DNA of 63,630 nt from an uncultured Clostridia bacterium (lineage in GTDB: Bacteria; Bacillota; Clostridia; TANB77; CAG-508). Under the pieces are notes generated by a model. It saw only the letters and a program-made list of their open reading frames with translations, was not told the DNA's origin and ran no database searches. The stretch covers positions 1 through 63,630 of the forward strand of contig CANRPI010000003.1 of the NCBI GenBank assembly GCA_947632475.1. Reading direction: 5' to 3'. This document shows positions 46,627-46,824 of this stretch, in pieces. Every line of letters starts with the position of its first letter. Within the stretch, counting starts at the first letter, position 1. Both the position numbers and the translations under genes were made by a program.

Positions 46627-46824
46627 TTTTAATTAAGTACAATACTTAATTAAAATATTAAAAAGCTTAAAATATATTATTTTACTAATATTTTTTAAGC
46701 TTTTTTATTTTATTTTTTTCATAATATTTTTTTATTTTTTGAATTCTATCTATTGCATATTCTTTGGCTTTATGCTATATTTAACTTATCTTAACTTTTA
46801 ATTAAGTATTGTACTTAATTAAAA
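46627..46824. promoter_or_regulatory. putative invertible promoter (inverton)
   Basis: perfect 29-bp inverted repeats 46627-46655 and 46796-46824; internal promoter TTGCAT-17 bp-TATATT (46753-46781, +); hairpin 46660-46705. Confidence 0.8.

Follow-up and report, generated by a model that had tools for sequence, protein, structure and literature searches.

The window, as we call the whole stretch of 63,630 nt analysed here, is contig C3 of a Clostridia assembly (G000: 1.40 Mb, 27% G+C, 87 contigs, 93.7% complete). Between smc and mfd, both on its minus strand, the window carries exact 29-nt inverted repeats separated by 140 nt, with a hairpin and a promoter-like motif between them and a short ORF with a pilin-like N-terminus on the mfd side (Table 1). 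An earlier note on this DNA had described the 29-mer, its palindromic form with an asymmetric core and its exact reverse complement, and all three hold at the positions given; the 29-mer has 4 strand-hits in the window vs. no match in 100 dinucleotide shuffles. Each of the two sites is a 13-3-13 palindrome that can alternatively be read as 11-nt arms with a 7-nt spacer, TACAATA.

Table 1. Features of the smc-mfd interval, with positions counted from the first nucleotide of the window
Feature	Positions	Strand	Description
smc	46903-50463	-	Pfam SMC_N, SMC_hinge; upstream neighbour, same strand
Gene-distal recombination site (predicted)	46796-46824		exact reverse complement of proximal site, core TTG
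Putative promoter TTGCAT-17 nt-TGcTATATT	46753-46781	+	TTGCAT 46753-46758; extended -10 46773-46781
Hairpin	about 46660-46704	both	long, A/T-rich; A run before, T run after
Gene-proximal recombination site (predicted)	46627-46655		29-nt palindrome, 13-nt arms, core CAA
Truncated pilin-like ORF, 75 aa	46358-46582	-	stop codon 46355-46357; family N-terminal signal and helix
mfd, first of two ORFs	43297-46254	-	UvrB_inter, CarD_TRCF_RID, DEAD, Helicase_C; directly 3' of the pilin-like remnant
mfd, second ORF	42786-43283	-	

The putative promoter has the sequence first reported for it, stops 14 nt short of the distal site and is directed at position 46824 and the 3' end of smc (the latter identified by Pfam), i.e. 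in antisense to smc and away from the pilin-like ORF. A scan for consensus promoters left the motif unlisted because its -35 element agrees with TTGACA at just 3 of 6 positions. As RNA, the hairpin folds at -16.7 kcal/mol on each strand (z = -6.2 for the plus and -5.1 for the minus strand), with a stem of 16-20 bp that is nearly all A-U and with U runs on both strands; a terminator scan returned no terminators and missed this hairpin since its stem has fewer than three G-C pairs. The earlier note had called the structure a terminator-like hairpin; it looks terminator-like in either direction.

The gene that the earlier note had taken for a pilin turned out, at this locus, to be a 75-aa remnant, which matches full-length paralogs for about 54 residues, then diverges and stops; a Pfam search with it gave no match. 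Downstream lies mfd, for which the consensus scan gave a separate promoter-like site (46343-46316, minus strand). Because the controlled ORF is a remnant followed by mfd, the window copy may be vestigial, or it may act on mfd instead. The smc-mfd gap measures 650 bp here (46254-46903) vs. about 12 kb in at least four congeners (in a comparison with loci L264 and L265), which argues that the window junction is a rearranged locus; in the relative G007 the interval holds a 315-aa pilin-like gene amid other genes. We also observed that mfd (42786-46254, minus strand) reads as two ORFs of 985 and 165 aa, with the TRCF domain in the second only; as mfd of G007 is split likewise (985 + 169 aa), the split in the window is probably no assembly error.

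A scan of the genome for further copies of the 29-mer beside pilin or recombinase genes, which the earlier note had proposed, returned 52 sites when up to 4 substitutions were allowed in the arms; they comprise 23 pairs, i.e. 23 cassettes by pilin-like genes, and 6 single sites. Of the latter, three lie at contig ends and two belong to truncated cassettes. As a control, the reversed pattern had no match in the same genome. The interiors of all 23 pairs are 138-140 nt long, which gives a cassette of about 197 bp, and they have diverged considerably, with alignment scores of 49-111 of 140 against the window copy; what is kept across the diverged cassettes are the two sites, the base pairs of the hairpin and the -10 block. 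The TATGCTATATTT block is unchanged in 23/23 cassettes, and in 22 of them TTGCA precedes it by 12 nt; the promoter motif (one mismatch at most) has 24 matches in this genome vs. 0-4 in each of 150 other species of the genus. Likewise, the hairpin was found in every cassette, with 19 pairs and 88.5% of cells paired vs. 43-68% in slid controls; six pairs have changed on both sides, and none of 500 shuffles attained the observed covariation score. Two of the cassettes (C37:277-473 and C76:2965-3161) have both flanks in common and similar, not identical, interiors in the same orientation; they may stem from the duplication of one locus or from differences between strains in the bin.

Core sites of tyrosine recombinases consist of inverted binding arms around a 6-8-bp overlap, which needs to match between partners. 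In this genome, the central triplets are reverse-complementary in all 23 pairs and fall into four core types (CAA/TTG in 17 pairs, TAA/TTA in 3, TGA/TCA in 2 and TAG/CTA in 1). Since the TAA core is present in three distinct subgroups of interiors, the double changes look repeated, not inherited once. Variation that is restricted to the centre and always matched in the partner is, as judged from sequence, the prediction of a recombinase overlap region, and not of an operator or of a transposon end. Read as 11-7-11, the sites have the form of tyrosine-recombinase crossover sites, with spacers matched between partners in 23/23 pairs; the window site, TTAATTAAG-TACAATA-CTTAATTAA, conforms to TTAAG-N7-CTTAA, and 49 of the 51 occurrences of this pattern in the genome are cassette sites. 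These candidate sites thus share with known core sites the inverted arms around a central spacer that alone varies and is always partner-matched, but differ from them in being nearly fully palindromic, with 3 of 7 spacer bases asymmetric.

By six-frame translation, the gene family under this putative control has 29 members in the genome, recognized by the N-terminus K-G-ITLIALVITIIVLLILAGVSIATLTGENGILTRA; the proteins are up to 613 aa long, and several of the genes, the window's among them, are truncated. The signal motif, K-G-ITLIALV, has Gly at -1 and a hydrophobic helix, but Ala at +5. Glu5 is a defining residue of pilins. Because Ala stands in its place and the N_methyl domain is mostly below cut-off or absent, we call the family pilin-like, not proven pilin, and the earlier note's "pilin" has to be softened to this extent. 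Among 8 family proteins searched for N_methyl (PF07963), one passes (17520-17945; 22.8 bits, cut-off 21.2), one scores 16.1 bits, below the cut-off, and six, including the 75-aa ORF of the window, have no match; 2 of the 8 carry a C-terminal domain of the FGE-sulfatase type. In a feature search, a 552-aa member fell among clusters of Bacillota whose automatic names read type II secretion system protein or hypothetical. A prepilin peptidase is present in the genome (Peptidase_A24 at C29:7565-7900), and T2SSE ATPase matches (PilB-/PilT-like) lie in the window at 12937-14967, near the 142-aa pilin at 17517-17945. The latter is part of a type IV pilus-like operon (9183-17945, minus strand) that comprises PilB-like (13810-15453) and PilT-like (12658-13785) genes, a 450-aa ORF, several ORFs of 142-276 aa and the said 142-aa pilin with its N_methyl match; this operon is preceded by none of the 52 sites. 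Another pilin-like member, of more than 459 aa and with a GLUG motif, occupies 62188-63630 on the minus strand, its 5' end, along with any cassette it may have, lying beyond the contig end.

With the promoter set to point rightward, 19 cassettes have a family gene that starts 29-148 nt past the hairpin-side site and reads outward, and one has a family gene 97 nt past the promoter-side site; the other three lie too near a contig end for an ORF call and were oriented by flank homology. On the basis of flank homology, the gene-family flank is beside the hairpin site in 22 of 23 cassettes and beside the promoter site in one, C8:589-785, while the flank opposite the gene-family side is unique in nearly all of them. 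Comparison of C8:589-785 with its paralog C29:2201-2397 revealed a colinear gene flank (92% over 333 nt) next to a cassette in reverse alignment (96.5% over 202 nt); the change of direction falls within the sites. By its sequence, this arrangement is the expected product of an inversion, and it is hard to obtain via transposition because cassette and gene were clearly duplicated as a unit. Both orientations are thus seen between paralogous loci (1/23 inverted) and, as described below, between species. The orientation bias is extreme, at 22 to 1 in this genome and 8 to 0 in the congener G154, and would be equally expected from a fixed arrangement with some other function.

A search of sequencing runs for words sampled from the stretch retrieved four rabbit-gut runs (2 samples, 1 study), which hold 36-44% of these words, and a chicken-gut run, which holds 4%. 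Over positions 45900-47500, the four rabbit-gut runs are represented by short Logan contigs that break off at the repeats, with none spanning the stretch and no strand-switch joint, and with a depth of 2-6 in the unique flanks vs. 18-2200 in the cassette and the pilin N-terminus; such fragmentary contigs are neither for nor against inversion. In the assembly, there is no second contig in the other orientation for any of the loci, including that of C8. The exact 29-mer had no match in JGI metagenome contigs; the 25-nt site pattern with a free core had none in the GTDB representatives of other species and 7 single-site matches in metagenome contigs. Among 40 relatives, none has the window site, the matches in G022 being a different A/T repeat.

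The window has no match to PF00589 or PF00239, and the earlier note's view that the recombinase is encoded elsewhere fits what we found in the relatives and in the rest of the genome. A candidate tyrosine-recombinase family of 305-324 aa, present in 43 of 150 congeners at E <= 1e-30, abuts homologous cassettes or sites in four of them (G154, G024, G068 and G058). In G154, a site lies within 10 nt of the recombinase gene and is followed by an array of eight cassettes and eight pilin-like genes, one of which is truncated; all sites there are of the form TTAAG-N7-CTTAA, with eight distinct 7-nt spacers whose partner is the exact reverse complement in 8/8, and all eight promoters are directed away from their own genes. 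In G024 the recombinase is followed by a site, then by a promoter directed at the gene, another site and the pilin-like gene itself; G068 has a single site between recombinase and pilin-like gene. G058 has 29-nt palindromes of a 12-5-12 form around a TTGCAA...TATGCTATATT promoter, situated between divergent pilin-like genes, and a second such cassette 1.3 kb from the recombinase. Among loci of other species (the best 45 of 80 fetched, from at least 574 relatives), inverted-repeat pairs were found within about 300 nt of the recombinase in 6 of 45 (L205, L206, L207, L214, L215 and L217). The cassette-specific 7-nt spacers of the relatives constitute a natural data set on how tyrosine-recombinase sites keep many switches independent.

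In the whole genome of the window there are seven PF00589 and six PF00239 matches; by our reading, all six of the latter are large or split serine recombinases, with no small serine invertase among them. For this reason, and because of the 7-nt matched spacers, we favor a tyrosine enzyme. The candidate family has three paralogs here (305-310 aa), on contigs C54, C48 and C2. Contig C54 begins within a cassette, at its promoter end, and the recombinase gene follows 1.6 kb on, on the same strand. Within C54:1-2622 the outward promoter is co-directional with the candidate invertase gene, two ORFs of the opposite strand lie between them, and one of these appears XRE-like by eye. No adjacent sites were seen in the nearest relatives of this C54 paralog (50-63% identity). 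In a quick tree (SH-aLRT supports only; row L215 dropped for an internal stop), 9 of 11 cassette-adjacent recombinases fall into one clade of 18 rows, which has no member from the 93.7%-complete assembly; C54 groups with the G058 enzyme, and C48 together with C2 forms a third clade. As a matter of judgement and not of computation, we regard the C54 paralog as a serious candidate for the invertase, at a little under an even chance; an unassembled member of the cassette-adjacent clade is a possibility of perhaps one in four, whereas C48 or C2 would be a doubtful choice, and what little is left goes to another enzyme. The latter might include C39, an XerD equivalog in an ffh-rpsP-trmD neighbourhood, which is a possible invertase without a specific link to the cassettes, and an XerC-like enzyme on C33.

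One further tyrosine recombinase, 340 nt from the cassette on contig C5, was considered and rejected as an insertion-sequence gene because an IS91-family transposase comes after it in 13 of 23 loci of relatives and its upstream leader travels along. This type of recombinase occurs in 20 of 150 congeners, yet no representative of another species has the window site. Among five relatives chosen for having it, inverted-repeat pairs upstream of pilin-like genes were found in 3 of 30 loci only, and one of these three is an unrelated dispersed 22-mer, which in G140 (e.g. L124:680-860) has about 87 matches at up to 3 mismatches, often in tandem at a spacing of about 31 nt. Pieces of the IS91-family element are found at several contig ends of the genome and in the window at 61948-62186. 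The window piece, on the minus strand directly after a pilin-like gene, is a remnant of the IS91-associated recombinase, in which a 43-aa leader ORF and the enzyme's N-terminal 34 residues are left; a full copy, at C5:41673-42502, is fused behind the N-terminal helix of another pilin-like gene.

Taken together, we think it likely that these cassettes form a multi-locus system in which a tyrosine recombinase inverts promoters, and that the copy in the window is in the OFF orientation. The earlier note had proposed an invertible promoter in OFF orientation, and this proposal gains from: 1) the 22 copies in one orientation vs. one inverted among 23 paralogs; 2) the cores that match in every pair; 3) the cassettes of the relatives. 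What has to be revised is its scope, as this is not a single switch. We infer that the segment would be inverted in vivo in the following manner. A tyrosine recombinase would bind the inverted arms of both sites and synapse them, and strand exchange across the 7-bp centre (TACAATA, in which the middle three bases alone are asymmetric) would flip the 140-bp segment. In the predicted ON state, the order would be upstream gene, site, hairpin with T run (at which read-through would end), promoter, site, ribosome-binding site and pilin-like gene; the promoter would then read through the gene-proximal site into the pilin-like gene, with mfd also downstream at the window locus, and the transcribed site in the leader could form a 16-bp hairpin, as predicted by RNA folding. 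In the OFF state, the promoter would fire outward and the hairpin would presumably shield the gene from upstream read-through. Taking the assembled consensus at face value, the window copy and 21 others would be OFF and one copy ON, so that the population behind the assembly may mostly express the C8 gene, at C8:1-441, plus any uncontrolled members of the family. The repertoire of about 29 variable pilin-like proteins would thereby be displayed mostly one or a few at a time, which would amount to phase or antigenic variation.

The sites might also be true recombinase targets whose main product is something else, namely inter-cassette deletion, large inversion or exchange of pilin-like segments, with promoter flipping as a secondary effect. 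In principle, the identical site in 17 cassettes allows recombination between cassettes, and the 6 single or truncated sites, the several truncated family genes (the window's included) and the short distance between smc and mfd would find an explanation. We nonetheless consider this quite unlikely as the principal function: sites in pairs around an interior of constant length, which carries a conserved promoter and hairpin, are required for promoter inversion and not for gene shuffling, and the cassette-specific spacers of the relatives forbid exchange between cassettes. Since 17 cassettes here have the same site, unlike those of G154, recombination between them is conceivable as a side activity, and we speculate that it could have given rise to truncated cassettes, remnant genes and the junction of smc with mfd.

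A case can also be made for a fixed module that never inverts, in which the palindromes would serve as operators of a dimeric DNA-binding protein, which would act on a divergent promoter by looping or repression. Perfect palindromes are typical of operators, the single orientation of 22/23 copies here and 8/8 in G154 is what such a module would display, and the short run contigs, which break at repeats, contain no strand-switch joint. We judge it quite improbable, given that it leaves unexplained: 1) the restriction of variability to an asymmetric centre that is matched in every pair (23/23 here and 8/8 in G154); 2) the precisely inverted C8 paralog; 3) the opposite orientation of the cassettes in G024 and G058. 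Finally, the notion that the 197-bp unit is a MITE-like element spread through the genome, with orientation reflecting the direction of insertion, draws on its terminal inverted repeats, its many copies and the contigs often broken at them, but is very improbable in the face of border direct repeats of 4 nt or more, as expected of target sites, in 0/23 cassettes, a position upstream of one gene family that is the same for every copy and has the gene flank homologous up to the site, an interior that has diverged while sites, hairpin pairs and -10 block were kept, and the lack of an associated transposase. The C5 recombinase is part of an IS91-family element, which has ends of its own.

Promoter inversion is well known from Bacteroides, enterobacteria, Clostridioides and mycoplasmas, and the global invertase of Bacteroides, Mpi, is a serine recombinase. 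The system that we propose is therefore of a known kind, and what sets it apart is its density and the family it targets. By analogy, its closest functional parallel is the mpl (P35) lipoprotein family of Mycoplasma penetrans, which, according to the passages of PMC2268961 that cite Horino et al. 2003, has 38 genes, most with an invertible promoter of their own, and recombinase genes nearby. The likeness, as far as that account goes, extends to a small genome, a multi-locus family of surface proteins, short gene-specific invertible promoters and nearby tyrosine recombinases as the proposed invertases (PMC2268961). In contrast to the mpl lipoproteins, the proteins here belong to a gut member of the Clostridia and have a prepilin-like signal; our sites are 29-nt palindromes with a 3-nt asymmetric centre, and the comparison with mpl is one of descriptions, as given in part of that source, not of site sequences.

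A second parallel is found in the capsular-polysaccharide loci of Bacteroides fragilis, whose dispersed promoters are inverted by globally acting recombinases, as described in PMC2268961 and in the abstracts of PMC11685472 and PMC11213015; the likeness lies in the numerous dispersed promoter-inversion loci under a global invertase. Unlike in B. fragilis, single protein genes and not polysaccharide operons are the targets here, and the 7-nt matched spacers point to a tyrosine enzyme. Closer in taxonomy, a 2025 survey of a defined gut community links an inverton group of Clostridia (group 139) to a tyrosine invertase group (group 35) (PMC11892184). Group 139 resembles our cassettes in being short invertons of Clostridia with a recombinase of tyrosine type within 5 kb, the examples given having repeats of 14-26 nt about 205-230 nt apart (PMC11892184); the words pilin and pilus have no occurrence in its text, and here again descriptions and not sequences were compared. 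This survey, made on cultured strains, gives a median of 3 invertons per genome for the Clostridia-like Firmicutes_A (PMC11892184), vs. at least 23 putative invertible-promoter cassettes in the present genome. In the partly available literature on pilin invertons of Clostridia and invertible promoters of Firmicutes, we found no description of this system.

The density corresponds to one putative switch per about 60 kb in a small uncultured gut Firmicute, all serving one pilin-like family of surface proteins. Tentatively, and with less confidence than we place in promoter inversion as such, one may picture a programme in the style of Mycoplasma, in which one tyrosine invertase would serve at least 23 insulated promoters and select which of about 29 pilin-like adhesins is on display, with the 17 identical overlaps permitting reshuffling or deletion between cassettes and the smc-mfd junction as a possible record of such an event. 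If the switches work, surface display in this lineage would be highly variable, the presence of a gene in a metagenome would say little on its expression, and assemblies would break at these loci, as the present one does. With respect to the host, a 2024 study reported that a pilin-like protein of the uncultured order TANB77 affects dendritic cells and the response to anti-PD-1 in mice (PMC11680825); for the genome described here, we take this report as a lead only.
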